IMG/VR virus record: IMGVR_UViG_3300037308_000832
Coordinates: 1-41,067 of that record
DNA: 41,067 bases
Source of the DNA: a virus
Taxonomy: Duplodnaviria > Caudoviricetes
Direction: 5' to 3' (one strand)
Of this stretch, positions 1,385 through 25,382 are shown in pieces. How positions within the stretch are numbered: the stretch's first letter is position 1; each line of letters starts with the position of its first letter. Below the pieces are notes generated by a model. It was not told the origin of the DNA, did not search any database, and saw only the letters and a program-made list of their open reading frames with translations. A program made the position numbers and the translations under genes.

Positions 1385-1554
1385 GCGTAATCGCGTATCA
1401 CAAGATGTTGTGTGGTGTCAATGGAATGTATCTAATGGCTGTGCATAACCGGCAATTCACAGCTATATTCGTTTATGGTAAAATTAAAATATACCCGCCG
1501 AAATTGCTAAAAAAATTTACGCCGATAAAACCCCGCCGAAATTCCCCTTAATAG

Positions 1555-1686
1555 TGCGCATAACATTGGCCGGAGAGACCTGCGGCTACTCCGACCGCAA
1601 TCGAATTTGCCCCTTGCCGTTATTGAAAAGCCCGGACAAGGTATCAAACCCGATTGCGGTCGGCGCAGCCGCCCAAGTTATGCGCA
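1555..1686. repeat. Long imperfect inverted repeat (~130 nt hairpin)
   Basis: TGCGCATAAC 1555-1564 pairs with GTTATGCGCA 1677-1686; CCGACCGCAATCG 1591-1603 pairs with CGATTGCGGTCGG 1651-1663. Confidence 0.85.
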
Positions 1687-1694
1687 TATAGCCT

Positions 1695-2441
1695 ATGGTC
1701 ACTGACATTCTCCACGACCTTCTCGATTTCCGCTATGCCACCATGTACAACCTGCACTCCCGCACCTGCAAATGGTTCGAGGGGTCCTTGTTGCAACCAC
1801 GCAAGGATTTTCAGCGCCTCATCGCCTCTAAATACATCCTTCCGGTTGACCAGGGCATCCCGGTCCGGGAAACGTCCATGAAGCAGTTTTATAAGATCAC
1901 CAAGGATGGGGCGGAGTACGTGGATCGCCGGCACGACTATAAGCCGGTCGAACGGAAAGAATCGTCATCCCTCAAGCACGAGAGCGTCAAGATAGACGTG
2001 CTCAAGTCCTTCAAGCTCATGTACGGGGCGCGGCAGTTCGACTACCACGTATCCATAGACGGCCATCGACCGGATGCGGTCATTCACGCCCCTTTCAAGT
2101 GTTACCTGGAGGTGGAGATAAAGGACCGGCCGGACAAGGTGATGATAACCTGCCGGAAGTGGAGTCAGGACCATAAAGACGGTCCGGTCCTCGTCGTGTA
2201 TTCCGATTTCAGCCACGATCCGTTCGTTCGGTATCAGCGGTACGCCGACAAGACCTACGAGAATGCCCGGATAGCGATGTCGGGACTGTTGCGCCACGCG
2301 AAGAAGGCCGGGCTGTCGGGCCGCTTCCTGTTCACCCACCACGTCTATTATCACAAGCTGGACGATAATGTCTGGTTTACGCCGGACGGCTCCCGCTACT
2401 CGCTCGACACCTACGGGAAGGAGCGGGGGTTAATCAAATAA
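1695..2441 (+). CDS. Replic_Relax-like protein (wHTH + PD-(D/E)XK), copy 1
   Basis: N-terminal wHTH-like region (..YKITKDG), then LKHE, RPDA and YLEVE motifs. Confidence 0.65.
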   Translation: MVTDILHDLLDFRYATMYNLHSRTCKWFEGSLLQPRKDFQRLIASKYILPVDQGIPVRETSMKQFYKITKDGAEYVDRRHDYKPVERKESSSLKHESVKIDVLKSFKLMYGARQFDYHVSIDGHRPDAVIHAPFKCYLEVEIKDRPDKVMITCRKWSQDHKDGPVLVVYSDFSHDPFVRYQRYADKTYENARIAMSGLLRHAKKAGLSGRFLFTHHVYYHKLDDNVWFTPDGSRYSLDTYGKERGLIK

Positions 2442-2445
2442 TCGT

Positions 2446-2751
2446 ATGACGAGGGAGGAAAAGTTCATCGAACTCGGCAAGCTCTACGCCGAGATCCACC
2501 GACTCACGAACCGGGCCATGGAGCTTTTAGATGCGCCGTCGGCCGAGAAGGAGTTCGAGAAGGCCATAAAAGACCATAAGGAGAAAGAGGCGGCCGTGCC
2601 GAAAAAAACCGGGCGCGGTAAATGGGTCCGCACCAAGAAACCCACCGACTATATCTGCAACGATTGCCAAGCCAAGTTCATGTCAACGGCGGGAAAGCTG
2701 GACACGACCTGCAACAACTGCGGGTCGGTCCACATTGATTACGCCAAATAA
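2446..2751 (+). CDS. Hypothetical protein with C-terminal zinc ribbon
   Basis: CNDC...CNNC motif; tightly packed after the upstream gene. Confidence 0.7.
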   Translation: MTREEKFIELGKLYAEIHRLTNRAMELLDAPSAEKEFEKAIKDHKEKEAAVPKKTGRGKWVRTKKPTDYICNDCQAKFMSTAGKLDTTCNNCGSVHIDYAK

Positions 2752-2763
2752 TTCGAAATCAAT

Positions 2764-3111
2764 ATGCAGTTACAACTCATCTACGACCGCCAAGCGGACA
2801 ACAAACAAAAAATGAAAGAGCTAAAGGTCATGATCGCCGACTCACTCGAAAAAGACCCAAAGTACCAGTCGGCGCTGATGGACCTCAACGACGCCAGGGT
2901 CAAGGTCAACGCCGTGAAAACGTCCATTCTCGCCCGATTCCAAGGCGACATCGACAACATTGAGGTTCTCAAAACAGACATTGGGAACGACCGCGATCTG
3001 ATGACCGACCAGGCGCTGGCCTTGTTCGCCAAAGGGCAGGAGCCGGTGGTTACGCACAAAGGAATTACCTACGCCGCCGAGTTTTCGGTGCGGTTTAAGA
3101 AGAAGCAATAG
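2764..3111 (+). CDS. Conserved hypothetical coiled-coil protein (resembles a family I recall from Parcubacteria)
   Basis: Helical ORF ending ..FSVRFKK; tATG start. Confidence 0.7.
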   Translation: MQLQLIYDRQADNKQKMKELKVMIADSLEKDPKYQSALMDLNDARVKVNAVKTSILARFQGDIDNIEVLKTDIGNDRDLMTDQALALFAKGQEPVVTHKGITYAAEFSVRFKKKQ

Positions 3112-3112
3112 T

Positions 3113-3268
3113 ATGGTCTATTTTTTTATTCTATTTTTGTCATTTGCGTTTGTTTATTATTCTTACGTTTCGGACACTAATTGGCAAAAATACGGGGCAA
3201 TTTTACTAGTTTTAATCGGCATAGAAATAATTGATCAGTTAAGAGAAATAAAAGATAAATTGAAGTAG
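3113..3268 (+). CDS. Small AT-rich membrane protein (51 aa), not in the ORF track
   Basis: MVYFFILFLSFAFVYY..GAILLVLIGIEIIDQLREIKDKLK; starts right after the upstream stop. Confidence 0.5.
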   Translation: MVYFFILFLSFAFVYYSYVSDTNWQKYGAILLVLIGIEIIDQLREIKDKLK

Positions 3269-3299
3269 CTTCTTACAACCTACCTGCGTATACCCACCT

Positions 3300-3438
3300 A
3301 ACTGTCCCTCGTCTCCCATTGTAGCGGCAGCTTCCGGCCCCTCAAGGGTAGTTCGCCCACAAGAGTACTTGTGGACGACTCCAGCCCTTGACCGGCCGCA
3401 AGCTATCAGCCGCTATCTCAATAGCGAGAGGGACAGTT
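3300..3438 (-). promoter_or_regulatory. Frpo-like single-stranded-DNA hairpin promoter upstream of ardC
   Basis: Stem from AACTGTCCCTC/GAGGGACAGTT up to CCACAAG-agta-CTTGTGG; minus strand of the left arm reads TTGAGG-16 nt-TACAAT. Confidence 0.7.
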
Positions 3439-3481
3439 TGGCGGACGCCCTCTTGCTTATTTTCCGCCGAGCGGAGGTGCG

Positions 3482-4232
3482 TATGCAAGAAGTCCAAGCA
3501 GTCCTACAGGACATCGTGACCAAGTTTCAGAACGGCGACATCCCTGATTGCGTGGCGTATGCGACTTTCCCCATCCCGGACATTCCGGCTAAGAAGTGGT
3601 CGTTTCTCAATCGAACGATCATGTTCATGTCCGGCACGATGGACGCTCGCGGCTTTCGCCAGTGGCAACAGGCCGGGCGGTTCGTCAGGAAGGGTTCCCG
3701 GTGCTTCTACATCCTCGCTCCGATGATCGTGAGGAAGAACGAGGAGGAAGTGGTCAAAGGCTTTAAGTCCGTGGCTGTATTCCGGGCCGAAGACACGGAC
3801 GGTCAACCGCTTGAGTACCAGACCCACCAACTCCCGGAATTGCCCTTAATGGAACGAGCACAAGAGTGGGGCGTGAACGTCAAGGCCGTCCCGGGCAACT
3901 ACCAGTACTATGGGTTCTTCTCCCAGACGAGGAACGAGATCGGCCTCGCTACTCCCGACGAATGCGTTTTCTTTCACGAGCTTTCCCACGCCGGGCATTG
4001 CCGGATCGTGGGCGGTCTTAAACCAGGTCAAGACCCGATGCAGGAAGTGGTGGCGGAATTGTGCGGGGCGGCGCTCTGCCGGCTGGTGGGGAAGTCCGGG
4101 GGCAAGTATTTCGGCAACGCCTACCGCTACATCGGGCGGTACGCGGAGAAGCTGAAGGTCACCCCGGTAGCGGCTTGTCTCCGGGCCTTACGGGAATGCG
4201 AATTGACCCTGCAACTCATCCTTGCTCCTTAG
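3482..4232 (+). CDS. ardC: ArdC-like antirestriction/ssDNA-binding protein with HExxH domain
   Basis: WSFLN..GFRQWQQAGRFVRKGS..ILAP N-domain; FFHELSH and EVVAE motifs; GGAGG SD before ATG 3482. Confidence 0.85.
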
Positions 4233-4238
4233 AACCAA

Positions 4239-4264
4239 AGACCGCCTGAAATACGGCGGTTTTC
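4239..4264 (+). terminator. Rho-independent terminator after ardC
   Basis: ACCGCC-tgaaatac-GGCGGT followed by TTT. Confidence 0.6.
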
Positions 4265-4336
4265 ACTTGGGGATAACTTTTACAAGAAATTGGAAAATCT
4301 TGTAAAAATGCCAGTAAATATAATAAATACAGGGTC

Positions 4337-4364
4337 TTGACGAATTCTGCAGGTATGCTATAAT
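4337..4364 (+). promoter_or_regulatory. Sigma70-like early promoter
   Basis: TTGACG-16 nt-TATAAT with an extended TG. Confidence 0.7.
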
Positions 4365-4392
4365 TATAATAAAGCTAGTATATCAATCACTT

Positions 4393-4557
4393 ATGAAAAA
4401 AATGCTTCTGACCTTCTCCGGAACGAATGAAGAACTGCACAAATGGCTAAAAGTGTGGTGTGCTGAAAATGATAAATCAATGAATGGTACGGTGATCGGT
4501 TTAATTAAAAAACAAAAACAAAAGTATGACCAACGTCACCATCAAGCGAACGGGTAA
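4393..4557 (+). CDS. Ribbon-helix-helix (Arc-like) regulator, 54 aa, not in the ORF track
   Basis: MKKMLLTF..EELHKWLKVWCAENDKSMNGTVIGLI fits an RHH pattern; first gene after the promoter. Confidence 0.65.
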   Translation: MKKMLLTFSGTNEELHKWLKVWCAENDKSMNGTVIGLIKKQKQKYDQRHHQANG

Positions 4558-4675
4558 GTTCTACCGCTATAAAAAATCCGGTCGTTTCGCTCAGAAGCCC
4601 TCTCTTACCCCCGCAATCATTTTCATGCTCATGATCATCCTTCAGTTCGTCTACGCTGCTTTTAGCTTGAATTAA
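4526..4675 (+). CDS. Small basic protein with a C-terminal TM helix (49 aa)
   Basis: MTNVTIKRTGKFYRYKKSGRFAQKP followed by a hydrophobic segment; tATG start. Confidence 0.45.
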   Translation: MTNVTIKRTGKFYRYKKSGRFAQKPSLTPAIIFMLMIILQFVYAAFSLN

Positions 4676-4730
4676 GTCATAACATAGCCGGTTGGTATCG
4701 CGGTGTACGGCCAGCCGGCCAGAAACAAGT

Positions 4731-5594
4731 ATGCGCGTGTACAACACGGGCGAGTCCCAAGTGAAGCCGTCAGTGGTCATGCTGGTGTACGGTGAAGGCG
4801 GTGTCGGAAAGACAACCTTCGCCTCGACCGCTCCCAAGCCGATCCTCGGCGACTGCGAGAACGGCGCTAAGTATTTCGGCCTTCGGGGAATCAAGGTCGA
4901 CGTGGCGCAAATCGAAAAGTGGTCGGACATGAAAGACTTCCTCGATCTTGTCCGCACGGCCGACTATCAGACCATTGTCCTCGATCCGGTCGGCGAGCTG
5001 ATGGACAAGCTGAAGCGGTACATGATCGCCATGAACGACAGCAAGCTGGTCCAGAAGGACGGCAGCCCGACCATGGCCGGCTGGGGATGGCTCAAGAAGA
5101 CGCTCCGGGATTACATCAAGATTCTCCGCGACACCGGCAAAAACGTCCTCCTGATCGCCCACCTCGATGAACAGAAAGACGAAGACCGGATCGTCAAACG
5201 CCCGAAGGTCGAGACGAAGCTGTCCGATGAACTGGTGAACATGGTCGACATCGTGGCGTACATGACAGTGGTGAAACACGAGGGGGAAGACCGCCGCATC
5301 CTCGTCGTCGACCCGGGAAGCGACAAGTACACGGCCAAGGACCGGACCGGGCAACTCGGGAAGGTCATCGAGCCGGATTTCACCAAGATTATGAACGCGG
5401 TGCAGGGGACGGCGACCTATAGCTGGAGCAAGCCCAAACCGGAACAGTCGAAAGAGGAACCCAAGCCGGTGGCGAAAGCCGAATCAAAGCCGGAACCGAA
5501 ACCCGAGCCGGCGCCTGAACCTAAAAAACTTACCAATCCCACCTTAGAAGCCGCCCGCCAGAAGATGGCCGTCGCTAAGGCCAAACAGCAATAA
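4731..5594 (+). CDS. Sak4-like / AAA_24 phage recombination ATPase
   Basis: Walker A YGEGGVGKTT, TIVLD, LLIAH and AKDRTG motifs; Pro/Glu/Lys-rich tail. Confidence 0.85.
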   Translation: MRVYNTGESQVKPSVVMLVYGEGGVGKTTFASTAPKPILGDCENGAKYFGLRGIKVDVAQIEKWSDMKDFLDLVRTADYQTIVLDPVGELMDKLKRYMIAMNDSKLVQKDGSPTMAGWGWLKKTLRDYIKILRDTGKNVLLIAHLDEQKDEDRIVKRPKVETKLSDELVNMVDIVAYMTVVKHEGEDRRILVVDPGSDKYTAKDRTGQLGKVIEPDFTKIMNAVQGTATYSWSKPKPEQSKEEPKPVAKAESKPEPKPEPAPEPKKLTNPTLEAARQKMAVAKAKQQ

Positions 5595-5595
5595 T

Positions 5596-6381
5596 ATGGC
5601 TGAGAAACAGACGCACTCGCTTTACGGGGGAGAAGTCGCGATCGACTTCTTCCCCGAGAGCCACCGGTACAAGTTGAGCGGTGAGCGGAGCTACCTGATC
5701 TCCTGCACCGCAGTCACCGGCATAATCGACAAATCGCGGTTCCTTATTCCGTGGGCCGTCAACCTCGCCGGCACCCACCTGAAACAGTTCATTGAGAATG
5801 CGACATCCCAACAGTTCACGGCCGAGGAGTTACTGCCAGTGATCGATGAGGCTCTAAAACAACACACTGTCAAAAAGGAGGAAGCGGCCAGCATCGGCGA
5901 CCTTATCCACGCGTGGGCCGAAAGTTTCGCCCTGGTGCAGTTGGAGAACGGCGAATCTCCCGATATCGCCGACGATCTTGACGATCGGGTTATCAACGGC
6001 ATCAACGCCTTTCTCGACTGGTACAACGCCCACAACGTCAAGTTCGTATGCGCTGAAAAGCTGGTCTATTCCCGGGAGCACGGATTCGTCGGCAAGATCG
6101 ACGCCGTGGCCGAGGTGGACGGCCGGAAAATGCTCATCGACTACAAGAGCGGCAAGTACATCTACAACGAACACCTGTACCAGGTCGCCGGCTACCGCCT
6201 CGCTTACGAGGAAGAGCACGGCAAGCTTGACGGCGCGGTGATCCTCCACTTCAACAAGGAGACTGGGCAACTGGAAACCAAGGAGATCGCCGAGGAGGAT
6301 TACAAGAAGGACGCAATTACCTTTCTTGCCTGCTTGACCGTCAAGCAACGGGAGAAGGAGCTTACTAAATATAACGCGTAA
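5596..6381 (+). CDS. PD-(D/E)XK exonuclease (phage recombination, Cas4/RecB-like)
   Basis: SCTAVTG, G.LIH, GKIDA..LIDYKSG and QVAGY motifs. Confidence 0.85.
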   Translation: MAEKQTHSLYGGEVAIDFFPESHRYKLSGERSYLISCTAVTGIIDKSRFLIPWAVNLAGTHLKQFIENATSQQFTAEELLPVIDEALKQHTVKKEEAASIGDLIHAWAESFALVQLENGESPDIADDLDDRVINGINAFLDWYNAHNVKFVCAEKLVYSREHGFVGKIDAVAEVDGRKMLIDYKSGKYIYNEHLYQVAGYRLAYEEEHGKLDGAVILHFNKETGQLETKEIAEEDYKKDAITFLACLTVKQREKELTKYNA

Positions 6382-6385
6382 ACGT

Positions 6386-6676
6386 ATGGCGAGTCGTCAA
6401 ATTGGCGCCCTCTGGGTGCGTAAGTCCAAGGATGGAAAGAACTACATGTCCGGCACCCTGGAAGACCTCAGGGGAAACATCCAGATTGCGGTTTTCAAGA
6501 ATGACCGTAAAGAGAAAGAGAACCAACCGGACTTTAGAATCGTGTTATCCGGTGAACCGGAGAACAAGCCCGCCGCGAATGCCGCCGATGCGATATTTGG
6601 CGAATCGGCCGCAATGCCCGCCATCACCGAGGCGGCGGAGCCGGAGATCAGAATCGAGGACATTCCGTTTAGCTGA
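6386..6676 (+). CDS. Putative ssDNA-binding protein (DUF736-like)
   Basis: IGALW..YMSG..QPDFRI; acidic SSB-like tail EDIPF. Confidence 0.7.
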   Translation: MASRQIGALWVRKSKDGKNYMSGTLEDLRGNIQIAVFKNDRKEKENQPDFRIVLSGEPENKPAANAADAIFGESAAMPAITEAAEPEIRIEDIPFS

Positions 6677-6708
6677 CAGACACTCCGGGCCTTACCGGGC
6701 CCGGGAGT

Positions 6709-7131
6709 ATGGCAGTTAACATCGAAAAAACAGTATTCATCGCCGAAGTCCGCGACGGCAAGCTCCTATTCCGCAACCCGAAACGCTTTGACCTATTCGT
6801 CGGACAGATGAAAGGCAAGGTGACGGTGCACATCGAACGGATGAAGAAGGTCAGGACGACCGGGCAAGCCGGCGAACGATCGAACATGAACGGCTACTAC
6901 TAGCTTTACCTAACCGTGATAGCCGATGAGACAGGCGACAACCAACAAGACCTGCACGAATACCTGAAATGGAAACTGCTCCCGCCTCGCTTCGCTCACA
7001 TACTCGGCCAGACTGTCCGAATGCCCGCGACGACCACCGAACTGACCGGGGCCGAGATGATGGATTACATGATGAGAATAGAACAGGTTTGCGGAGTACC
7101 TATACCGCCGCATCCTGACGATAATCAATAA
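6709..7131 (+). pseudogene. NinB/Orf-like protein interrupted by an in-frame TAG at 6901-6903
   Basis: ORFs 6709-6903 and 6916-7131 share a frame: RSNMNGYY*LYLTVIADETG..LHEYLK..TTELT..YM. Confidence 0.65.
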
Positions 7132-7135
7132 ACCT

Positions 7136-7324
7136 ATGTATCAAGACAACGCCATCTATGTTTGCGCCCATTGCGGTGAAAAGGCCAAGGGTAAGAGCCG
7201 TTATTGCGCCCAATGCACGACCAAGGCCGGGCGCATGGAAATCTACAAGGCCAACCTGGAAATATACAAAGAGCGCAAAGCCGCAGGGTTGCCGGTTCCG
7301 CAATCATTACCTAATCCGGCTTAG
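7136..7324 (+). CDS. Small zinc-finger protein
   Basis: CAHC..CAQC motif; aacctATG start. Confidence 0.6.
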   Translation: MYQDNAIYVCAHCGEKAKGKSRYCAQCTTKAGRMEIYKANLEIYKERKAAGLPVPQSLPNPA

Positions 7325-7367
7325 TAAATACCGGCGTGCCGATACCGCCGCACCCGGATGAAAATGT

Positions 7368-7592
7368 ATGACCGAACAACAATTCGCGCTCCTCTGTTTC
7401 CTCGTCCTCATGCAGGACATCAAAACGAAAGCGCCGAGCTACATCGAGGAAAAAACAATGATTATGGACGCCGGGTATGACGCGTTCGGATATTTGGACA
7501 TCAACAACCAGCGCAAGGTGATCGACTATCTGAAGACTTGGAACATGGACGTGCCGCAGCTCATAATGGAAAATTTTCCATACCTTCAATAA
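7368..7592 (+). CDS. Hypothetical protein
   Basis: 74 aa ORF with tATG start, packed in the operon. Confidence 0.6.
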   Translation: MTEQQFALLCFLVLMQDIKTKAPSYIEEKTMIMDAGYDAFGYLDINNQRKVIDYLKTWNMDVPQLIMENFPYLQ

Positions 7593-7598
7593 AAACGT

Positions 7599-8060
7599 AT
7601 GAAGACCAAAAACAAAAAAATCACTCCCCGCCAGTTCCGCGCGTTCCTCCTTTGGTTCATCGCTCTCCTCTCGATCATCGTCATCTACCAGAAGGCTGAC
7701 ATCAAGCTCCTGATGGTGGCGGCGGCGCCGGCAGACCGGCACGCCTTCCTTCCGCAGAATCCCGACCGGACCGACCTGACCGTAGCAGAGCGCATTCGCA
7801 TCATCGCTCATAAGGCCGGGTTTCAGTGGCCGGACTACCTCGTAAAGCTGGCCTACTGTGAATCACGGTTCGACCAGTGGGCGACTAACCTGAACGGCGG
7901 GCATAGTTTGGATCGGGGGCTGTTCCAGATCAACCAGAAATACCATCCCGACGTATCGAGTGAGTGTGCGTTCGACATCGAGTGTTCGACCAAATGGACG
8001 ATGGAACAGGTAAGTGCCGGACGGCAAAGTATGTGGGTGTGCGATAAGTTAATTCAGTGA
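7599..8060 (+). CDS. Membrane-anchored lysozyme-like/lytic transglycosylase
   Basis: N-terminal TM helix; CES catalytic motif, DRGLFQIN and W..C. Confidence 0.8.
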   Translation: MKTKNKKITPRQFRAFLLWFIALLSIIVIYQKADIKLLMVAAAPADRHAFLPQNPDRTDLTVAERIRIIAHKAGFQWPDYLVKLAYCESRFDQWATNLNGGHSLDRGLFQINQKYHPDVSSECAFDIECSTKWTMEQVSAGRQSMWVCDKLIQ

Positions 8061-8080
8061 TCTTCCCCTTAAGTTCACAT

Positions 8081-8280
8081 AGTCGGGTGGCGGAATAGGT
8101 AGACGCACGGTGTCCCGTTAAATGCGGAGCCGGTTTGTACCGAAGCCAAAGAGTAGCCGTGACACTGCCACGGCGATGGTATGGGGGTTACAATCAAACA
8201 TGCAGGGTGACTATGCGAGTAATCCGTTATCAATGCCCTCAACAAGCAAAGACGACGCTCGTCAAATCCCTGCCCCGACA
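8081..8280 (+). ncRNA. tRNA-like element with greatly expanded anticodon/variable and T arms
   Basis: GTCGGG/CCCGAC acceptor stem, TGGCGGAATAGGTAGACGC D arm (Leu-like), GCAGGG..TCAAAT-CCCTGC T arm; no readable anticodon. Confidence 0.55.
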
Positions 8281-8447
8281 CTCTTAATCTCCATTTCGTT
8301 CCTTGTAACCTGCCCGATCCCTCCGGGCAGGGTAGAGCGAACGATCAGCTGGCGAATGCGCGGCTCAGTAGCCATGACCGACGGATGAGGTAACTCATCC
8401 CAGTGGTGAACGCGGCCAAACGGTTTGTTGGCTCCCTAACGGGTTAT

Positions 8448-8861
8448 ATGGAAAGCCAAACCGATAAACTTTATAAGCTGTTAGCTGACGGCAAACCCTA
8501 CCGGACCGACCAGATCGTGAGCATGGTGTACGGAAACGGACTGTCGTTGGCGCGTGTAGGAGCGCGGATATTCGACGTTAAGCGGAAGTATCGCATCATG
8601 ATAAAAGGGTGGAAGGATAAGGACAACCCGGCCCTGTACTGGTACCAGCGGTATTTCCCGCACGAGGTATTGGATCATAAAACGCTTCGGGACGATGACG
8701 TGGAGCGGGTGTTTCGGGAGACCGTTGGTAGGTTAAAGATGTTCGACCTGGAGAGCATCGAGTTCATCAATGCGTATAAAGCGTGGCAGAAAGCCAAGCC
8801 GCAAGACAGGGATCGGTGCAGAGGGGCGTTCGTTTATTTATACAATAGGCTAAATGTTTGA
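8448..8861 (+). CDS. Hypothetical protein with N-terminal wHTH
   Basis: LYKLLADGK..ARVGARIFDVKRK resembles a helix-turn-helix; tATG start. Confidence 0.6.
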   Translation: MESQTDKLYKLLADGKPYRTDQIVSMVYGNGLSLARVGARIFDVKRKYRIMIKGWKDKDNPALYWYQRYFPHEVLDHKTLRDDDVERVFRETVGRLKMFDLESIEFINAYKAWQKAKPQDRDRCRGAFVYLYNRLNV

Positions 8862-8868
8862 GGGTCAT

Positions 8869-9018
8869 AGACCTACTGGCCGTCGTCTCCCATTGTAGCG
8901 CCACCCCGATACCTATCAAGGTTGTCCGCCCACAGGATTACCTGTGGACGGCTCCACCTTGACAGGCATCGGGGTCCCCGGCGCTCTTTTTCTGGCGAGA
9001 CGGCCAGTAAGGCGGTCT
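8869..9018 (-). promoter_or_regulatory. Frpo-like single-stranded-DNA hairpin promoter upstream of parB
   Basis: TACTGGCCGTC/GACGGCCAGTA, ACCCCGAT/ATCGGGGT and CCACAGG-atta-CCTGTGG; minus strand of the left arm reads TTGATA-16 nt-TACAAT; paralogous to 3300-3438. Confidence 0.72.
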
Positions 9019-9055
9019 GGCATCTCAATTTACATACTCACCGCCAATCAACTCT

Positions 9056-10426
9056 ATGAAGTTGGAACAGATCAAAGTCGCGGACGCGTATCAATCCGAT
9101 ACGAACCCGCGCGGCACGGATTTCAGCGGCCCGGCGTTCGACGACCTGGTCGCAAGCGTTAAGGAGAAGGGCGTGTTGGTCCCGATCATCGTCAGGCCCA
9201 AGAAGAAGGGAGCGAAGCTGTACGAGGTCATCGCCGGCAACCGGCGGTTTAAGGCGGCGCAAACGGTCGGCTTACAGGAGATCCCGGCGCGGATCGAGGA
9301 GCTGAATGATGACGAGGCGAGCGAGGTTCAGATCATCGAGAATCTTCAGCGCGAGGATGTGCATCCGATCGAGGAGGGAGAGAGTTACCGACGATTGGTG
9401 GAACAGTCTCATTACGAGGTCGCGAGCATCGCGGCCAAGGTCGGTAAGTCGGAAAGCTACGTGCGGCAGCGTCTATTTTTGACGAATTTGAACAAGAAAG
9501 CGGCAGAGCAGTATCGGAAGGGAAAATTTACGGATGGTCACGCGGTGCTTATCGCAAAGCTGTCGCAAGGTGATCAGGACAAGGTCTTGAATCATTTCGG
9601 CGCGGAATGGCCGGCCTGGTCAGTGAGCGAAGTTAAGAATTGGATCAAGCAGAACATCTACGATTCCCTTGATTACCAGCCATGGCTTAAGGACGAGGAA
9701 GTTATGGAGGCGGTCGGTCCCTGCCAGGAATGCCCGCCGAACAATGCCACCCTGTTCGGGGAAAGAAAAGAGGGCGCCTGCACTTCGTTGAAATGCTGGA
9801 ACCGGAAAATGAAACTGTACATCAACTATGTGGCGGAAAAGGAAAACACCTTGCTTAAGGTAAGCAAGGAATACGGTACGCCCGAAACCAAGGGAGTTAT
9901 AGGCCGCAGCGATTACCAGGCTTTGAGCACCAAAAAGAAGACTCATTGTGAATACGCTGAAAAGGCGGTGGTGGCCGAGGGGCCGGACCAGGGGACGGTA
10001 ATTTGGGTATGCGCGGATAAGCGGTGCAAAGAGCACGGCGATCAGCATACTTCTTACAAACTTTCTTCCGAGGAAAAGGAAGCCCGGAAGAAGGAGCGTG
10101 CCCGGGAGGAAGCCAAGAAGGCGAAAGATGATCAAAAGTTGCTCGGCGTGTTGGCCGGCATCCAGTGGCCGATGGACGATAAGACGCTTGATGTTTTGGT
10201 GGATGTAACGATCGAACGGAGCGGACGGGATGTCGCCCGTATCATCGCGAAGCGGCACCAGTGGGAAGTGAAGCGGACGGATAACCGGGTGGATTACGAT
10301 TTGACGGTCAGGGAACGAATGGCGGTTATGACGAGTCAGGAGAAGGTTCAGTACTTGACTGAGATGTTGCTTCAGTGTGTGTGGGAGGAACCACGGAAGA
10401 AGGCGCTGAATACGCTGGTGAAATAA
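9056..10426 (+). CDS. ParB/RepB/Spo0J-family protein (long, mobile-element type with Cys-rich region)
   Basis: NPR, GVLVPIIVR, YEVIAGNRRFKA, IIENLQRED motifs and HTH. Confidence 0.9.
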   Translation: MKLEQIKVADAYQSDTNPRGTDFSGPAFDDLVASVKEKGVLVPIIVRPKKKGAKLYEVIAGNRRFKAAQTVGLQEIPARIEELNDDEASEVQIIENLQREDVHPIEEGESYRRLVEQSHYEVASIAAKVGKSESYVRQRLFLTNLNKKAAEQYRKGKFTDGHAVLIAKLSQGDQDKVLNHFGAEWPAWSVSEVKNWIKQNIYDSLDYQPWLKDEEVMEAVGPCQECPPNNATLFGERKEGACTSLKCWNRKMKLYINYVAEKENTLLKVSKEYGTPETKGVIGRSDYQALSTKKKTHCEYAEKAVVAEGPDQGTVIWVCADKRCKEHGDQHTSYKLSSEEKEARKKERAREEAKKAKDDQKLLGVLAGIQWPMDDKTLDVLVDVTIERSGRDVARIIAKRHQWEVKRTDNRVDYDLTVRERMAVMTSQEKVQYLTEMLLQCVWEEPRKKALNTLVK

Positions 10427-10437
10427 GGTCGATTGCG

Positions 10438-10476
10438 GGGGAGGCGGGCTTCGGTCCGTCTCCCTCGTTTTGTTTT
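10438..10476 (+). terminator. Rho-independent terminator after parB
   Basis: GGGAGGCGG-gcttcggt-CCGTCTCCC followed by a T-rich run. Confidence 0.65.
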
Positions 10477-10560
10477 AAGAAAGGTTTGCCCGAATATATC
10501 CCCTACGCCCAAAAGCCGGGCCTCGCGGAAGAGCAAAAATTTCATTAGCTGTTCGCAAGC

Positions 10561-10620
10561 AAAAAATCCGAATCGGCGCGATATATGGAGAACAACGGTA
10601 GGCGCCCATTCGGATTTTTT
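10561..10620. repeat. Inverted repeat upstream of the relaxase; oriT candidate
   Basis: Perfect 13 bp AAAAAATCCGAAT/ATTCGGATTTTTT in the spacer between the parB terminator and the relaxase. Confidence 0.55.
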
Positions 10621-10696
10621 GTTGCTCACCCTCCTTGTATATGTTATTTTTGCTCATCCGCTACTGCCCGGTTAAAAGCCTTTTAATAGGGGCTAG

Positions 10697-11296
10697 ATGA
10701 CGCTCGATTCGTACCTGTCGCCGACGAGGACCAGACCTCGACTTATCCAGGGATTACGGACGCTTGCGTTGGTCCGCTACGCCACGCTCCCCCTTCTTCA
10801 GGCTGTCAGAAAACCCTACCGCCAGCACATTTACACCAAATCATCCTTCCAGGCCCTGTCAGAATTGGAAATAGTGAAGAACCGGAACGGTGTTTTTTCG
10901 GTCGGTCCGAAAGGCTGGAATTTATTGGATTTACCGGAACACTACCAGAAGCGGTGCCGGGGTGAGGGCGGGGAGCACGATCTGGCTGTCAGCGCCTTCC
11001 TCATAAACCTTACAGAAAACCCGGAGTTCCTGACAGTGTTCTATCCCCATTTCGGCGACCTGCGGCCGGACGCCTGTATCATTTACCGGAAAGAGGGCGC
11101 TTACCGGATCGAGTTCCTGGAGGTGGAGGTCTCTCCGAAGGAGAAAGAGTACCTGCCGGAGAAGATGAAGAAGTACGACCGGCTGGCTAAGGACTACCAG
11201 ACCTACGCGACCTGGTGGCAGTTGTGGAGCAAGCGGTTAGGGTTGCCGTACTGCACGGCGGATGAGTTCAAATTCAGCGTGCGAGTGGAGGGGTGA
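10697..11296 (+). CDS. Replic_Relax (MOBC-like PD-(D/E)XK) relaxase-like protein, copy 2
   Basis: EHDLAV, LRPDA, FLEVE and KMKKY motifs; in an operon with a coupling-protein-like ATPase. Confidence 0.75.
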   Translation: MTLDSYLSPTRTRPRLIQGLRTLALVRYATLPLLQAVRKPYRQHIYTKSSFQALSELEIVKNRNGVFSVGPKGWNLLDLPEHYQKRCRGEGGEHDLAVSAFLINLTENPEFLTVFYPHFGDLRPDACIIYRKEGAYRIEFLEVEVSPKEKEYLPEKMKKYDRLAKDYQTYATWWQLWSKRLGLPYCTADEFKFSVRVEG

Positions 11297-11722
11297 ATGG
11301 CGAGAAAATTCGATCCGAACGGAAAGAGTTTTTTTGACGGATTGATGTCCGGTCCGAGCGACGATGAGATACGGGAAGAGAAGGAGCGCAAACGCAAAGA
11401 GAAGCTGGACCGCTGGGCGCGGGAAGAATACACCGCCGGGGAATCCGTCTTTTTCGGGTTAGGCAGTATCATCGGCGATAAGCTGGCGGAGAAGCTCTAC
11501 CCGTTCGATGAGACGATCATGAGAGCGGAACGGCAAGCGGACCTGTTGCAGAAGATAGCGAATATCATCCAGACTACGAATAACGCAGAGCAGGCGATAC
11601 GGATACTGGAAGCGGAGAAACTGAAACAGGAAACGCGCAGGGTGAGAGCGCAAGCGGACGTTGAGGAAGCCAATGCTGACTTTACCATCGATGAGCTTAG
11701 GCGTCTCAAGGAAGGTAAGTGA
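11297..11722 (+). CDS. Hypothetical coiled-coil protein between relaxase and ATPase
   Basis: Abuts the relaxase stop; GGAGG SD; helical and charged. Confidence 0.7.
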   Translation: MARKFDPNGKSFFDGLMSGPSDDEIREEKERKRKEKLDRWAREEYTAGESVFFGLGSIIGDKLAEKLYPFDETIMRAERQADLLQKIANIIQTTNNAEQAIRILEAEKLKQETRRVRAQADVEEANADFTIDELRRLKEGK

Positions 11723-12809
11723 AGGCGTCCCGATCTGGAAAGGGGCGGACCGCTTCAAGCACCTGTTCGCGGTCGGCGGGACCGGCGCCGGCAAGAGCAC
11801 ATTCCTGTTAAACTTAATCGCCAAGACCGACGGAGGGATGGTCATCCTCGACCCGAACGGCTCTCTGGCCGAGCAAGCGTTACGCCTGAAGCCGGGGGCG
11901 TGGTACGTCACGAAGGACAACCCCATCGCCATCAATCCGCTCGATCGTGACGTGCCGCTGGAAAACATGGCGGATGAGTTTGTCGAAGTCATGGAGATGG
12001 CGGTCAAGATTGTGTCGCCGGACCAGAAGCCAAGCACCGTGCTTATGCAGCGGATTATGCGGAATGCGCTACGAATCGGCATTAAAGACATCAAAGAATT
12101 GGTCCGTTTCTTTGATGACCCGAAATTACGAAAGGCGCACTCGGATGATTACTGGAAACATTTTGACGACCGAGATAGTCGGGGATGGTTCGTGGATAAG
12201 GACCGGGTGGAGAGCGTGCTGAGAACGGCGGTCCGGTTATCCGCGATGACCGAAGACAGCAGCGTTTATTCGTTTTTGAAGGGCAAGAGCAAGTTCGACG
12301 TGGAAATGATTGCCAAAGAGAAATTGACCGTCATTTTCAATTTTCAGCGATGCAGTGATTTCGTCACGGCTTTCTTGGGCGGCCTGGTGGCGATGGGGGT
12401 CAAGAGCTATTACCAGAACAAGGCGAACTATGATGCCCCGCCGTTCTACTTTTTCGTTGATGAGGCCCGGTTGTTTTTCAGCGAGTTATACCAGCGCTTT
12501 TTGGCCGAATGCCGGAAGTACAACATATCCGTGAATCTGGCGTTCCATTCGTTGTCGCAAGTGAATCCCGCGCTCATGGATATGTGTTTTGCCAATTGCC
12601 ACGCCAAGGTATTTCTTGGCGGCAGCTATCTGGATGCTAAGGTGTTCGGTGAAATGATGAACTATAAAATGCCCAGTTTCAAAAATCACGAGGGTGTTGT
12701 TTGCATAGGCAACAAAGCGCACTACGTCATGTTCTATCCTCCTCCCAATCTCCCGGAAGGCCCGCCGCAATACAACTTCATGAAAGACGGCTGGATTACC
12801 GTTACCTAA
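11691..12809 (+). CDS. VirD4/TraD/HerA-like P-loop ATPase (T4 coupling protein-like, no obvious TM anchor)
   Basis: DRFKH..GGTGAGKS Walker A, ILDPNG, INPL, FFVDEA Walker B and ECRKY motifs; start could be 11661 or 11691. Confidence 0.82.
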   Translation: MSLGVSRKVSEGVPIWKGADRFKHLFAVGGTGAGKSTFLLNLIAKTDGGMVILDPNGSLAEQALRLKPGAWYVTKDNPIAINPLDRDVPLENMADEFVEVMEMAVKIVSPDQKPSTVLMQRIMRNALRIGIKDIKELVRFFDDPKLRKAHSDDYWKHFDDRDSRGWFVDKDRVESVLRTAVRLSAMTEDSSVYSFLKGKSKFDVEMIAKEKLTVIFNFQRCSDFVTAFLGGLVAMGVKSYYQNKANYDAPPFYFFVDEARLFFSELYQRFLAECRKYNISVNLAFHSLSQVNPALMDMCFANCHAKVFLGGSYLDAKVFGEMMNYKMPSFKNHEGVVCIGNKAHYVMFYPPPNLPEGPPQYNFMKDGWITVT

Positions 12810-12815
12810 GAATTG

Positions 12816-12824
12816 TGCTAGAAT
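12816..12824 (+). promoter_or_regulatory. Extended -10 promoter
   Basis: TG-c-TAGAAT about 7 nt upstream of the structured element. Confidence 0.5.
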
Positions 12825-12831
12825 GTAAGCA

Positions 12832-13030
12832 GGTGGGCCGCAGGCCGGGATACGGACAGAATCCCGTCCCTAGGCGACCTGTTACCCGCCGCTACCTATT
12901 CGCTGCCAAGCGTACCGTGTTGGTCTCTTCACGGATGGTAGGGGAGTAACTAAGCGGGACAGCCGCAGGAAGCCTTGCGCTGACTCTTGCGCTCGGCTGA
13001 CGTGCATCGGCGGTGTTGCGGCCTTAACCA
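12832..13030 (+). ncRNA. Unassigned multi-branched structured RNA (~200 nt)
   Basis: GGCCGCA/TGCGGCC closing stem with G-U pairs; inner GGGAT/ATCCC, GTCCC/GGGAC, GTTAC/GTAAC, CTACC/GGTAG and CCGTG/CACGG. Confidence 0.55.
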
Positions 13031-13037
13031 GGAATTT

Positions 13038-13066
13038 GGGCCGGGACACCCCGGCCCTTTCCTTTT
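13038..13066 (+). terminator. Intrinsic terminator between the RNA and the DnaG-like gene
   Basis: GGGCCGGG-acac-CCCGGCCC-TTTCCTTTT. Confidence 0.65.
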
Positions 13067-13083
13067 ACCGAAAGGAGGAAAGG

Positions 13084-13812
13084 ATGTACGTCGATTTCAA
13101 GGAAGTGTCCGCGATCCCGTTCAAGGCCGTACTCGACTGGCTCAACATCGGGTACACAGAAACAGACAACGAACTCAAAGGCGACACCTTCATCGTGTCC
13201 AAAGACAAAGGGCTCTTTTTCAATCCCAAGTGCAAGGACGAGAAGGGAAGCGTCATCAATTTCCTCGCCCTCCATCGCCACGTGTCCCTCCGGGACGCCG
13301 CCATCGAACTCAAGAAACAGTTTCAGACCGTAAAACAGGAACCGAAACGGGACATCCCGGAACTAGACCTTTTGTACACAGCGGAGGTCAAAGACCTTGG
13401 CATCAGCGAGGAACTGGCCAAGAACTATGAGATCGGCCTGGTGAAACAAAAGTCCATCATGGCCGGCAAGGTGGCGTTCCGGGTGTACGACCGGGAGGGG
13501 AAACCGATCGGCTACGTCGGCCTGAAGGACGGCCAGTGGTTCTATCCCAAGGGCTTTGAAGCCGCGAAGCACCTCTGCAATTACAACCGCAGGAACGGCA
13601 ACAACTTCTGTGTGCTCTGTTCCTCTCCCCTGGAAGCGGTCCTGTACCACCAAGAACACAAGGAGCCGCGCGTCATCGCTCTTTTCAATCAATCCGTATC
13701 AGACGAGCAGATCGGACTGCTCAAAGCCTTCAAGTACATTCTGCTCATTCATCCAAAACCGGAAAACATCCTATCCCGCCTCGCCAAGATCGCTTACGTG
13801 CATATCAAGTAA
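13084..13812 (+). CDS. Degenerate DnaG-like primase homologue
   Basis: KGSVINFL..SLRDAAIEL (ZBD-like), GISEELAKNYEIG, KVAFRVYDREGKPIGYVG, SVSDEQIGLLK; TOPRIM E and DxD residues appear absent; AAGGAGG SD. Confidence 0.7.
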   Translation: MYVDFKEVSAIPFKAVLDWLNIGYTETDNELKGDTFIVSKDKGLFFNPKCKDEKGSVINFLALHRHVSLRDAAIELKKQFQTVKQEPKRDIPELDLLYTAEVKDLGISEELAKNYEIGLVKQKSIMAGKVAFRVYDREGKPIGYVGLKDGQWFYPKGFEAAKHLCNYNRRNGNNFCVLCSSPLEAVLYHQEHKEPRVIALFNQSVSDEQIGLLKAFKYILLIHPKPENILSRLAKIAYVHIK

Positions 13813-14420: not shown

Positions 14421-14690
14421 ATGGCCGGCAGAAAATCATTCCACGCTGAACTTCGATTGTTCGAGCGGTATAACGAACTCACCGTTCCGTATTTCAACTT
14501 CCTGAAGCGGATGCTTAAGAGCAAGAGCAAGGAGGACAAGAAGTGGGCGTCGGAACGTATCGAGAAGGCATTCGTTAAGATGATACCCCAGGATGTTACG
14601 TCGGGAGGCGAGAAGATACAGCCCATATATGCAGGGATTTCAAAACACCTCGGCGACCAAGAAGATATTCAGCCTGAAGAAAAGGATTAG
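14421..14690 (+). CDS. Putative terminase small subunit
   Basis: Immediately upstream of and overlapping terL; C-terminal DVTSGGEKI typical of TerS tails. Confidence 0.55.
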   Translation: MAGRKSFHAELRLFERYNELTVPYFNFLKRMLKSKSKEDKKWASERIEKAFVKMIPQDVTSGGEKIQPIYAGISKHLGDQEDIQPEEKD

Positions 14691-15846
14691 GGCCGTCGCC
14701 GGCGGCACGTCCGCCAGCAAGACCATCTCCATCCTGATCTGGCTCATTGACTACGGGCAGTCCACCAATAACGAAGTGATGACGGTGGTGGCCGAGTCCG
14801 TGCCCCATCTCTTGCTGGGTGCCATTCGCGACTTCAAGAGCATCATGACCACGCAGGGATATTGGCGGGAGTCACGTTGGAACGAGAGCAAGCACATTTA
14901 CACTTTCGAGAACAACACCATCCTGGAGTTTATTTCCTTCGACAAGTTCGGCAAGGCGCACGGACCGAGGCGCGACATCCTGTTTTTGAACGAAGCGAAC
15001 AACATTCCTTACAACATCGCCGACCAGCTCATCACGCGCACCCGCAAGATCGTGTGGATGGACTGGAATCCGAGCGAAGAGTTCTATTTCTACACGGAGA
15101 TGCTCCCGAACCGGACCGACATCGACTTCATCACCCTGACGTACAAGGATAATGAGGCGTTGGACGAAGTCTCCATCACGGAGATCGAGAGCCACAAGAA
15201 CAACAAGCAGTGGTGGACGGTGTACGGCCTTGGGCAGTTAGGTGAGATCGAGACCAGAATATATACCGGCTGGAAACTGATCGATGAGACACCTCATGAG
15301 GCCAGGCTGGAGCGGTACGGACTGGATTTCGGGTATACCAACGATCCGACCGCCATCACCGCTCTGTATTATTACAACGGGGGCTATATCCTGGACGAAC
15401 TGCTCTACCGGAAAGGATTGTCCAACAAGGAGATAGCCGACTTCATCCGCAACCTTCCCGCCGCGACTGTCATCGCCGATTCAGCCGAGCCGAAAAGCAT
15501 CGACGAAATCAGAAGCTACGGTATCGCCATTCAGGGCGCTAAGAAGATAGGCGAGAAGTTCGGCGGCATTCAGAATTACAACAAATGGGCCATCGGCCAG
15601 GTGCAGGCGCAAAGGATGAGCGTAACCAAGAGAAGCCTGAACGGGATAAGGGAGTACCGCAATTACCTCTGGGACGTGGACAAGAACGGGAAGATCTTGA
15701 ACGACCCCGCTCCCGGAGCCGATCACTTCCTCGACGCTGCCAAGTATGCCATCTGCTCCCTCGCGCCGATCATCAACAGGGCCGAGTATATCAATTCGCT
15801 CCCTTACTTTCCTAATAACGACAAGCCGGTGAATCCGGCCCGATAA
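14629..15846 (+). CDS. terL: Terminase large subunit, PBSX/SPP1-like
   Basis: GGTSASKT Walker A, LFLNEAN, DWNP, GLDFGYTNDPTA, ADSAEPKSI and DHFLDAAKY. Confidence 0.95.
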   Translation: MQGFQNTSATKKIFSLKKRIRAVAGGTSASKTISILIWLIDYGQSTNNEVMTVVAESVPHLLLGAIRDFKSIMTTQGYWRESRWNESKHIYTFENNTILEFISFDKFGKAHGPRRDILFLNEANNIPYNIADQLITRTRKIVWMDWNPSEEFYFYTEMLPNRTDIDFITLTYKDNEALDEVSITEIESHKNNKQWWTVYGLGQLGEIETRIYTGWKLIDETPHEARLERYGLDFGYTNDPTAITALYYYNGGYILDELLYRKGLSNKEIADFIRNLPAATVIADSAEPKSIDEIRSYGIAIQGAKKIGEKFGGIQNYNKWAIGQVQAQRMSVTKRSLNGIREYRNYLWDVDKNGKILNDPAPGADHFLDAAKYAICSLAPIINRAEYINSLPYFPNNDKPVNPAR

Positions 15847-15850
15847 ACCT

Positions 15851-16159
15851 ATGCCCAGAAAGAAGAAAGTCGAAGCGTCGGCCGTGGAAGCGGTCGAAGT
15901 GCCGGTCGAGAACTTGAAAATTTATCAGGTCACGTTGACCGTCAACGAGCAGACGCAGGCTACCGACGGCGAGACGCTGTTGGACGCCTTTGGCAAACTG
16001 GACAAGCACGAGGTTTTCAACACGCTGGGCGAGCTGAGGGTCAAGAAGAACGATCGGGAGTTCTCCATGTCGCTTACCGTGCCGAAGCTGCGAAATTTCT
16101 TCAACGACGAGACCTTTCGTCAGATAATCAACGACCATTTTGAACTTGCTTTAAGCTGA
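15851..16159 (+). CDS. Hypothetical protein
   Basis: 102 aa ORF packed between terL and portal. Confidence 0.7.
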   Translation: MPRKKKVEASAVEAVEVPVENLKIYQVTLTVNEQTQATDGETLLDAFGKLDKHEVFNTLGELRVKKNDREFSMSLTVPKLRNFFNDETFRQIINDHFELALS

Positions 16160-16160
16160 T

Positions 16161-17918: not shown

Positions 17919-18237
17919 ACAAGAGGAGGTGGAGATCAGAAAGTTACTTGCCAACGACGTTCTGATGCCCGCCCTTAAAAAGGTGCTGTTGTACAGCATT
18001 TATCACTCCGGCACCCTGAAGCCGGGCGAAGACCCGGACTTCCTGCGCAACTTCGTCTACTCGCTCTTGATCGAGCCGCGCACCGGCCAGGAATACAAAG
18101 TGACCAACGAGGAACTGGGCGAGAAGCTGCGGGCGCGGATCGAGGGCATCATCATGCTCGATGACGGCTTCAAGCACCTGGAGAAATTCCGCCAGGACAT
18201 TAAAGCGGACGCGGAGGAAAAGAACCCGGCCCGATAA
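17893..18237 (+). CDS. Hypothetical head-module protein
   Basis: Overlaps the portal end; C-terminus NPAR matches that of terL. Confidence 0.7.
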   Translation: MQLDKILSEQEEVEIRKLLANDVLMPALKKVLLYSIYHSGTLKPGEDPDFLRNFVYSLLIEPRTGQEYKVTNEELGEKLRARIEGIIMLDDGFKHLEKFRQDIKADAEEKNPAR

Positions 18238-18250
18238 TAATTCCTATATT

Positions 18251-19021: not shown

Positions 19022-19060
19022 AGGTCGAGCAACAATTAATTTTAGTCAATAAACATACCT

Positions 19061-19723: not shown

Positions 19724-19788
19724 TAATTCAATTCGGGTAGCCGTTACCCTTTCTAACGGCATCGGACAAGCCACAAGTCCTTACAAAT

Positions 19789-20343: not shown

Positions 20344-20390
20344 GCCGGATCGTGATTGTCTGGGTTTAATTAATCTAAACAGACAATCTT

Positions 20391-21269: not shown

Positions 21270-21322
21270 TAGTCACCCTCTGCCCGTTCTGCGGGCAGGG
21301 ATGTGATTATTAACCCCTCCGT

Positions 21323-22057: not shown

Positions 22058-22263
22058 ACAACGCCGACAAGACAACCACGACCGCCGGGAACGCTGACAA
22101 GACGACCACCACGATGAGCAACGCCAACCGGGGGTTGTCCACCTCAGAGGCGAACATTTGGCACGAAACCAACACCCCCTGGGACCCGGAGAGCGATTTA
22201 CCCTGGCAGGATGAAACCACCATCGACGCCGACACCGAATTTACTAACCAGGATAAGTTATGA
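22054..22263 (+). CDS. Small acidic protein with tandem NADKTTTT repeat
   Basis: ATGA overlaps on both sides; duplicated 10-aa unit. Confidence 0.6.
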   Translation: MNNADKTTTTAGNADKTTTTMSNANRGLSTSEANIWHETNTPWDPESDLPWQDETTIDADTEFTNQDKL

Positions 22264-25370: not shown

Positions 25371-25382
25371 TCAAAAACCCCT

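Follow-up and report, generated by a model that had tools for sequence, protein, structure and literature searches.

The stretch analysed here (the window) is the whole of virus record IMGVR_UViG_3300037308_000832 (41,067 nt; G000 among our records, in which G and L numbers denote genomes and loci, respectively), and we consider it reasonably probable that it is a temperate tailed phage whose virion genes occupy the cargo slot of an integrative mobilisable element, spreading both in virions and by single-strand mobilisation through a borrowed channel. Its backbone is common to virion-less elements, its catalytic motifs are intact, and hairpins conserved on the minus strand precede two of its left-arm genes. 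From left to right, it encodes a restriction-modification pair, relA (the family of gene 1695), an ardC-like gene, a block of Sak4, exonuclease, SSB, NinB and SLT genes, parB, relB (the family of gene 10697), the small gene 11297, an ATPase, a primase-like gene, the terminase and virion genes, a NinG-like gene and a tyrosine integrase (Table 1). A preliminary description of the window had proposed the same two routes of spread, an interpretation supported by recurrence of the backbone, the one-strand hairpins and the flanking integrase and relA, the mobilisation route itself being fairly probable; it had overlooked the second relaxase paralogue (1695) and the integrase's membership of the backbone.

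The strongest evidence for this reading comes from the hairpins before parB and ardC, whose sequence and predicted fold fit Frpo-type single-strand promoters. The preliminary description had both genes pointing towards an inverted repeat near 10.6 kb, each behind a promoter hairpin folding on the minus strand, and both points were borne out: gene calls place parB (9056) and ardC (3483) rightwards, towards the repeat, and the two hairpins carry -35/-10 boxes and fold on the minus strand, over 8880-9000 and 3305-3425, at z -9.1 and -8.3, respectively (0/200 shuffles). The minus strand folds better than the plus strand by 5.6 kcal/mol (parB hairpin) and 4.5 kcal/mol (ardC hairpin), a preference explained by G-T pairs (3 vs 0 and 3 vs 1). 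The boxes lie on the 3' arm of each hairpin; on double-stranded DNA they point away from the gene, and in the folded minus strand RNA polymerase would run from the loop to the stem base and on into the gene.

Across nine aligned copies, the TTGA and TAxxxT boxes were near-invariant on the 3' arm of the minus-strand stem, and the stem covaried, with 90.9% of cells paired (27-46% in slid controls), 15 of 25 pairs changed on both sides and 0/500 shuffles as high, the structure being taken from the window copy and the shuffle ignoring relatedness. A profile of these nine copies, run over 742,827 nt, returned 31 rows at E<0.01, and all 31 fell on the minus strand, the one proposed for transfer in the preliminary description (22 of the rows lay outside the training set, and a few are duplicates or halves of one site; hairpin scans beyond the window were seeded). 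At least one promoter hairpin was present in 12/12 virion-bearing records, always left of relB (weak in G002 and L097); across all rows, a hairpin to the opposite side of relB occurs in the rearranged L056 alone. Genes that follow the hairpins include ones of anti-restriction type, namely ardC (window, L055, L056, L101 and G113), radC (L012) and DUF932 (G003). A virus whose injected DNA is double-stranded has no obvious use for single-strand promoters. That they are conserved next to relB is therefore direct evidence, at the sequence level, of a stage with single-stranded DNA, and points to the strand and region concerned. An exact 17-mer from the hairpin, also tried, hit 3 virus loci without protein relatives of the window and was dropped.

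The presence of a relaxase/ATPase module in a phage is a family trait and not a quirk of assembly. Querying the virus collection with RelB or the ATPase as single proteins gave no matches, and alignments were needed; the one built on the ATPase yielded 3 virus, 45 metagenome and 16 genome loci, and a search with the primase-like gene found 13 virus loci, three of which start at the query gene. The ten with upstream DNA all carry relB and the ATPase upstream and a terminase subunit downstream (in L097 the small subunit alone), and these ten, G001 and the window make up 12 virus records (the search patterns came from five sequences, one of which, G003, is among the matches). Common to them are a backbone of relA, leading genes, relB, small genes, ATPase and primase-like gene, a virion module and, in complete records, a related integrase at the opposite end, the layout recurring in the 11 other records at roughly 30-50% protein identity. 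Records G001-G003 (36.9-39.8 kb) follow the window order, with a relA-like gene first and the integrase last (relA of G002 was placed by alignment). Same-family integrases were found in all three and in 4/5 further records, the miss being 49% complete and one record having terminal repeats; the integrase search returned just the 3 records behind its patterns and is hence not independent. CheckV completeness was 85-100% in 7/8 records checked, and G001, G002, G480 and G481 are classed as proviruses.

The virion module sits between the primase-like gene and the integrase, and it differs among records: the window and G002 have four virion genes in common, and the others match different capsid and terminase families. 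In virion-less relatives, found in Ignavibacteriota and Latescibacterota genomes, the same slot holds ordinary cargo or nothing. The integrase follows closely after the primase-like gene in L004, L008, L009, L010 and G004, and 8-10 kb of cargo lies between the two in the 18-29 kb elements of G113, G197 and G265; among 10 cargo proteins of the latter that were scanned, the lone virion-type match covered 93 residues of a 1,418-aa protein (tail family), and no terminase was found on the relB contig in any of five genomes tested. The window's integrase shows 42-48% identity to those of relatives with and without virion genes, its ardC-like protein is ~50% identical to counterparts in virion-less relatives, its ParB 50% identical to that of G001 and its primase-like protein, in which the usual Toprim acidic motifs are not evident by alignment, 39-50% identical to relatives. 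The relB family was detected in 4/301 genomes of Ignavibacteriota (the phylum of G005), 3/168 of Latescibacterota and 1/301 of the phylum of G007. A Patescibacteria host gained no support, the family being found in 0/401 genomes of one such phylum and in 0/3 with distant ATPase matches, figures that show little with genomes this incomplete.

A midpoint-rooted tree of relB, ATPase and primase-like gene from 20 elements (12 virion-bearing, 7 virion-less and L007, unlabelled) interleaves the two kinds, with 5 label changes, 3 of them forced by strong branches, and a single clade for the 7 virion-less rows was rejected (p-AU 4e-36). Left out of it, a gene being partial, absent or elsewhere, were L008, L009, L012, L014, L018, L020, L022, L055 and L056. 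We infer that lineages gain, lose and swap the virion module; with midpoint rooting, the position of G197 inside a virion-bearing clade suggests a loss. In such a family of exchangeable virions one chassis could serve as temperate phage, as conjugatively mobilised island or as the two at once, and its virion-bearing members would enter cells as single-stranded DNA with an early anti-defence programme, a proposition for and against which we see equal chances. If it holds, a prophage would carry the genes for being mobilised itself, and both its family of single-strand promoters and its MOBC-like origin would be new.

Several features of the relatives are recorded here in their own right. The virion-less clade of L004, L010, L020 and G004 (L074-L075) has acquired a resolvase, parA, parB and a Rep3 initiator left of relB, and in L004 and L008 relA comes after the integrase, as in a circular form. 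The distant variants L022 (557-3541) and L056 (2307-5304) have a clear PF13814 gene facing a DnaG-type primase of full length, an arrangement from which relA and the shortened primase-like gene possibly derive. Virion-bearing and virion-less left arms have a small unknown gene in common (L101:2776-3054, L086:1876-2190 and L092:3219-3509), hinting that some virion-less elements descend from phages.

The protein encoded by relB was described before as a Replic_Relax/MOBC-like relaxase, and its fold and residues agree with this, the Pfam match being weak (see below). Its model (pLDDT 96.4 with 80 homologues; a 6-sequence model had pLDDT 55) comprises a winged helix (residues 2-83) and a nuclease-type fold (91-199), the latter aligning with the VRR_NUC structure 4qbn (Z 6.8, rmsd 2.8, 77 aligned). 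Residues P124, D125, E142 and E144 (PD..ExE) are present in 20/20 elements and in at least 90% of the 80 homologues. By structure, RelB comes closest to proteins of Bacillus phages (phage G gp146, E 5.8e-8); a Foldseek search of the PDB gave no match at E<=0.001. Both relB and the ATPase gene are under purifying selection between virion-bearing pairs, with dN of 0.09-0.35 against a dS of 1.6 or saturated in 5/5 pairs.

By profile-profile comparison, relA is a paralogue of relB (probability 95.6, E 1.2e-8), and 3/8 of its relatives match PF13814, below the cut-off. The hairpin upstream of it folds at z -7.3, with 3 G-T pairs on the minus and 0 on the plus strand, and hairpins upstream of relA-like genes favour the minus strand in 8/8 listed. 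We rejected relA as the transfer relaxase, because the promoter hairpins sit between relA and relB and so lead just from relB; with its own hairpin, relA likely serves or initiates replication. Words similar to the CCGCCGA-type repeats before relA occur in L004 and L008, where local alignment was marginal (9 and 40 of 200 shuffles equally high).

The ATPase had been called VirD4/TraD-like. It passes two coupling profiles, T4SS-DNA_transf PF02534 (37.6 vs 20.1) and TrwB_AAD_bind PF10412 (24.1 vs 20.5), and fails the DUF87/HerA cut-off (20.8 vs 23.2); a clean split from VirB4 and HerA was not obtained. Its Walker A and B motifs are intact, 3/5 of its plasmid matches are annotated as type IV DNA-binding or transfer proteins, and its look-alike clusters are mostly of TrwB/TraG-D type, two of the top three being largely viral. 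In relatives, the slot of gene 11297 holds membrane and coiled-coil-like genes, usually including one with a hydrophobic segment; the coiled-coil-like partner had no usable look-alike (best 0.85), and the window's 11297 protein matched no family in the profile scans run. The ESM Atlas clusters ranked 1 and 3 contain coupling-type ATPases whose few labelled members are mostly from tailed phages, which suggests more families of this kind.

As for the origin, the inverted repeat at 10561-10620 that had been proposed as oriT is real (perfect 14-bp arms at 10560-10573 and 10608-10621, z about -5, 0/200 shuffles as stable), but it has no strand bias and its sequence is not conserved, being absent from the relatives compared, many of which carry short direct and inverted repeats in its place. 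The conserved candidate lies ~55-70 nt to the left, just after the terminator (10435-10468) that directly follows parB, and is a CCC-spacer-CCC element found family-wide, with a leave-one-out total of 327.6 against 197-227 in 10 shuffles and 251.3 on the other strand. It is positioned at -206 to -219 in nine elements, most of them related, and at -209 in the window. This motif makes ~10490-10506, and not the inverted repeat, the candidate nick site.

The window's standing as a temperate tailed phage is marked by matches to a terminase (E 9e-28, firm), an HK97-type major capsid protein (phrog_267, E 1.9e-7, weak) and an integrase. The virion gene set had been called complete; terminase, clearly matched fibres and the weakly matched capsid were recovered, the presumed portal (16161) was not, and completeness is thus inferred. 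Relatives G001 and G003 have full long-tail gene sets, including prohead protease and tape measure, beside the relaxase module. The window encodes its own integrase and relaxase, as integrative mobilisable elements do, and mating-pair genes were not matched; the earlier statement that no VirB4 or pilus genes are visible still holds, none of these families being matched among 56 ORFs scanned. It is set apart from phage-plasmids by a parB without parA, by the integrase and by a 161,228-nt contig that encodes a protein identical to its ATPase, because of which the record is likely a provirus excised from a host contig.

Put together, these parts suggest the following course. The integrase would excise a circle, RelB would nick the minus strand ~200 nt before its own gene, and the ATPase, together with membrane partners, would pass this strand on to the mating channel of another element. 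Entry would start with the 5' end and run leftwards, delivering parB first, ardC ~7 kb later and relB last, and the hairpins would allow parB and ardC to be transcribed by host RNA polymerase while the DNA is still single-stranded. In an alternative fate, the circle would be replicated and then packaged by the terminase.

A number of points weigh against this reading. The evidence comes from sequence and models, and the main gap is the mating channel, with VirB4 above cut-off in 0/5 host genomes (two models; genomes incomplete). RelB scores 22.7 bits against Replic_Relax PF13814, below the cut-off of 25.3, PF13814 matches just 17/80 members of its family (E<=0.01, best 3.2e-9), its fold Z-scores (6.4-7.6) are middling, and relB of G001 lacks a usual start codon where one is expected. 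The best NCBIfam match of the ATPase is VirB4 (2e-10) and its best PADLOC match mad8, both weak, and its PDB matches, also weak, mix HerA and coupling proteins; neither it nor the 11297 protein of the window has a hydrophobic segment, and for want of an N-terminal membrane anchor in either we file the ATPase as coupling-like and not as a canonical VirD4. A strict oriT motif recurred in 1/11 new loci out of sample and was rejected, the looser CCC-spacer-CCC motif was chosen after this failure, and the window copy of the latter (11.0 bits, rank 11/299) is not significant alone. Pfam, PHROGs, NCBIfam and the PDB gave no match for the presumed portal, which is so named by position alone, and no att sites were found, the record ending at gene ends (stop codons) without a terminal repeat. 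Finally, MOBC genes usually follow the coupling gene, unlike the window order (bioRxiv 2024.01.30.577996), MOBC elements show no leading-region enrichment (PMC11541004) and the related operons of lytic Bacillus phages have no known role (PMC3357382).

The alternative that survives best, itself unlikely, is that RelB and a HerA-like motor serve intracellular rolling-circle replication only, with the hairpins acting as promoters or primers on the displaced strand, virions as the sole means of spread and the virion-less forms as remnants or satellites. Phage genome reports that note such operons (PMC3853050; PMC11526630) take the FtsK/replication-relaxation pair of Bacillus phages as replication genes, PF13814 is itself named for replication-relaxation, and a relative of relA weakly matches a 'replication initiation protein' family (E 1.7e-4); moreover, family scans of the window recognised no other initiator, the class of the ATPase is ambiguous and no helper channel was found. 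However, the hairpins stand before anti-restriction-type genes and are confined to one side of relB, an arrangement known from conjugative leading regions, and relA is available for replication. The virion-less elements also keep the whole set, some of them beside a Rep3/parAB replicon of their own (L004), and no terminase subunit was seen in them.

Quite unlikely is export without a type IV channel, in which the ATPase and neighbouring membrane proteins would export the strand and the recipient would take it up by another route. The lack of VirB4 in the 5 host genomes tested would fit, as would the membrane and coiled-coil-like genes between relB and ATPase in most relatives and the weak matches of the ATPase to CedD/CedB-type translocase profiles, but the window slot has no membrane gene and the look-alike clusters are of coupling-protein type. 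Helper elements can, besides, be short-lived, and metagenome bins often lack them, which also counts against this alternative.

Very doubtful, too, is an alternation of states, in which virion-bearing forms are phage-only and recombine with mobilisable relatives, or the window is a defective prophage spread by mobilisation alone. Labels on the tree are indeed not clustered (150/500 shuffles equally low), in the window the portal lacks confirmation and the NinB-like gene is split, and P1-like elements are described as having gained mob/oriT while losing phage functions (PMC10879196). Set against this are the purifying selection on relB and ATPase between virion-bearing pairs, the retention of hairpins in all of the virion-bearing records, the full long-tail sets of G001 and G003 and the high CheckV completeness.

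That the assembly is chimeric, or that an ordinary prophage harbours a separate nested element, is hardly credible: the G-rich skew at 8.0-12.5 kb differs from the rest of the window, none of the contigs listed spans the whole module and no long piece bridges the junction at 8.0-10.0 kb, but the order is the same in 11 other records, integrase and relA at the two genome ends belong to one backbone that lies on both sides of the virion genes with one integrase, which makes the module chassis and not insert, and contigs of run X2, from a separate study, cover 30/30 bins of both 1-20000 and 33000-41067. The X2 contigs include 10440-12389 and 13538-15579, the latter joining the primase-like gene to the terminase, with zero differences; contig depth was flat and is uninformative on induction, and runs X4-X6, with their small shares, were left aside.

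Phage-borne pairs of MobC-like relaxase and ATPase have been known since 2012, when a 'DNA translocation operon' was described in Bacillus phage 0305phi8-36 and relatives (SPO1, Gamma and GBSV1; Pathria et al. 2012, PMC3357382). As in the window, a relaxase like MobC of CloDF13 there adjoins a membrane-less coupling-type ATPase in a tailed phage; in contrast, no oriT, leading region, single-strand promoters or virion-less sisters are described in the accessible part of that paper, deletion of the Bacillus phage operon had no laboratory effect, and the window family has two relaxase paralogues and a backbone common to virion-less elements of other phyla. The MOBC modules of plasmids (CloDF13 MobB/MobC, pAD1 TraX) likewise join a winged helix to a restriction-enzyme-type nuclease (PD-(D/E)XK in TraX, PMC12857230), have their own coupling protein and are nicked ~100 nt from the binding repeats (PMC12857230, PMC5935869). 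The CloDF13 nick, GGGTG/GTCGGG (PMC5935869), resembles the family element on the minus strand (GGGTG-TGGC-TCGGG in L104), a resemblance and not a test. Here, unlike in these modules, the order is origin, relaxase, ATPase, RelB falls below the Pfam cut-off and the element integrates and has virion genes.

Integrative mobilisable elements are defined by an integrase and a relaxase without mating-pair genes (PMC11389934), and two relatives of the window have a tRNA gene just after the integrase; what differs is the phage virion module in the cargo slot of 12 records. The hairpins share with the Frpo of F and IncI leading regions a -35/-10 hairpin on the strand that templates the leading genes (PMC11541004), but they appear to form a separate sequence family and belong to a MOBC-like element inside phages; the supplements of PMC11541004 list Frpo sequences that could bear on the novelty of the promoters. 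Phage-plasmids and tandems of phages with integrative conjugative elements (ICEs) also join phage and plasmid or conjugation genes on one DNA (PMC12282955, PMC10879196, PMC13651849), and prophages can be mobilised by neighbouring ICEs (PMC12282955, PMC13651849); the tandems, however, are two cooperating elements with two integrases (PMC13651849), and here there is one integrase and the genes are interleaved. According to a 2025 review, conjugation had been found for no phage-plasmid and for no integrated prophage (PMC12282955), and P1-like elements mostly acquire mob/oriT as they cease being phages (PMC10879196). Further literature consulted includes PMC12102498 and PMC4487206.

Our literature search, which covered main texts and few subscription papers, found no paper describing the window's element family. 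The Streptomyces plasmid-phage pZL12 reportedly moves as double-stranded DNA without a relaxase. New here are conserved single-strand promoters inside phages and a common chassis with a swappable virion module in its cargo slot. Our reading bears on the phage-borne MobC-like operons, which have been without a function since 2012 (PMC3357382). If this reading is correct, phages of this kind could also get into cells without their receptor, and among the islands of little-known freshwater and subsurface bacteria some would be phages minus their virion genes.

Table 1. Coordinates, strand and basis of the features of the window.
Feature	Position	Strand	Basis
Three short direct repeats (CCGCCGA-type), candidate binding sites	1495..1545	+	before relA; sequence
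Long hairpin, no -35/-10; candidate replication origin or priming signal	1553..1690	-	upstream of relA
relA, Replic_Relax-type nuclease, relB paralogue	1695..2441	+	profile-profile match
Predicted single-strand promoter hairpin for ardC (TTGAGG-16-TACAAT)	3312..3427	-	folding, alignment, covariation
ardC-like anti-restriction gene	3483..4232	+	phrog_7245 E 4.3e-9
Recombination block: Sak4, exonuclease, SSB-like, NinB-like, SLT lysozyme	4731..8060	+	family matches
Predicted single-strand promoter hairpin for parB (TTGATA-16-TACAAT)	8886..8998	-	folding, alignment, covariation
Long ParB-family gene, no parA	9056..10426	+	ParB_N and HTH_ParB
Candidate nick region, CCC-spacer-CCC (G-rich on minus)	10488..10506	-	family motif, 209 nt before relB
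Inverted repeat, perfect 14-bp arms, candidate relaxase binding site	10560..10621		sequence, folding
relB, MOBC-like relaxase candidate, winged helix + PD-(D/E)XK	10697..11296	+	profile, model, residues
Small charged protein	11297..11722	+	no family matched
VirD4/TrwB-like coupling ATPase candidate, 372 aa, no membrane segment	11691..12809	+	profiles
Primase-like (DnaG-derived) backbone gene	13084..13812	+	phrog_47 E 5.6e-7
Virion module: terminase, presumed portal, major capsid, fibres, peptidase, XhlA-like small protein	14421..35089	+	
Tyrosine integrase of the backbone	39961..40902	+	phrog_1 E 1.4e-37

Among the remaining features, the matches of the ardC-like protein (3483) to ArdcN and of the parB protein (9056) to PRTRC ParB were below cut-off. 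The recombination block is preceded by an ordinary double-stranded DNA promoter (4337-4364), and its NinB-like gene (6709-7131) is split by one in-frame TAG and is a single intact ORF in relatives. Next to this block, the intergenic stretch 8075-8290 starts with a tRNA-like 5' end; ARAGORN found no tRNA in the window, and a tRNA is present in several relatives. Before the primase-like gene lies a structured non-coding stretch (12830-13065), weak against shuffles (z -1.5 to -2.0), with a terminator-like hairpin at its end (13038-13057). A scan of 1-14600 against Rfam gave 2 matches, at chance level.

On the minus strand at 1-1384 are a BglII-like endonuclease and an N4/N6 methylase; this restriction-modification pair may be cargo of the element rather than host DNA, because G002 and G003 carry such pairs inside the element. 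Some 2 kb at 36300-38420 hold no convincing plus-strand genes, and their small minus-strand ORFs are probably lysogenic cargo. After the collagen-repeat fibre gene comes a glycosyltransferase-methyltransferase gene (34693-36303), whose product may modify the virion or the host surface.

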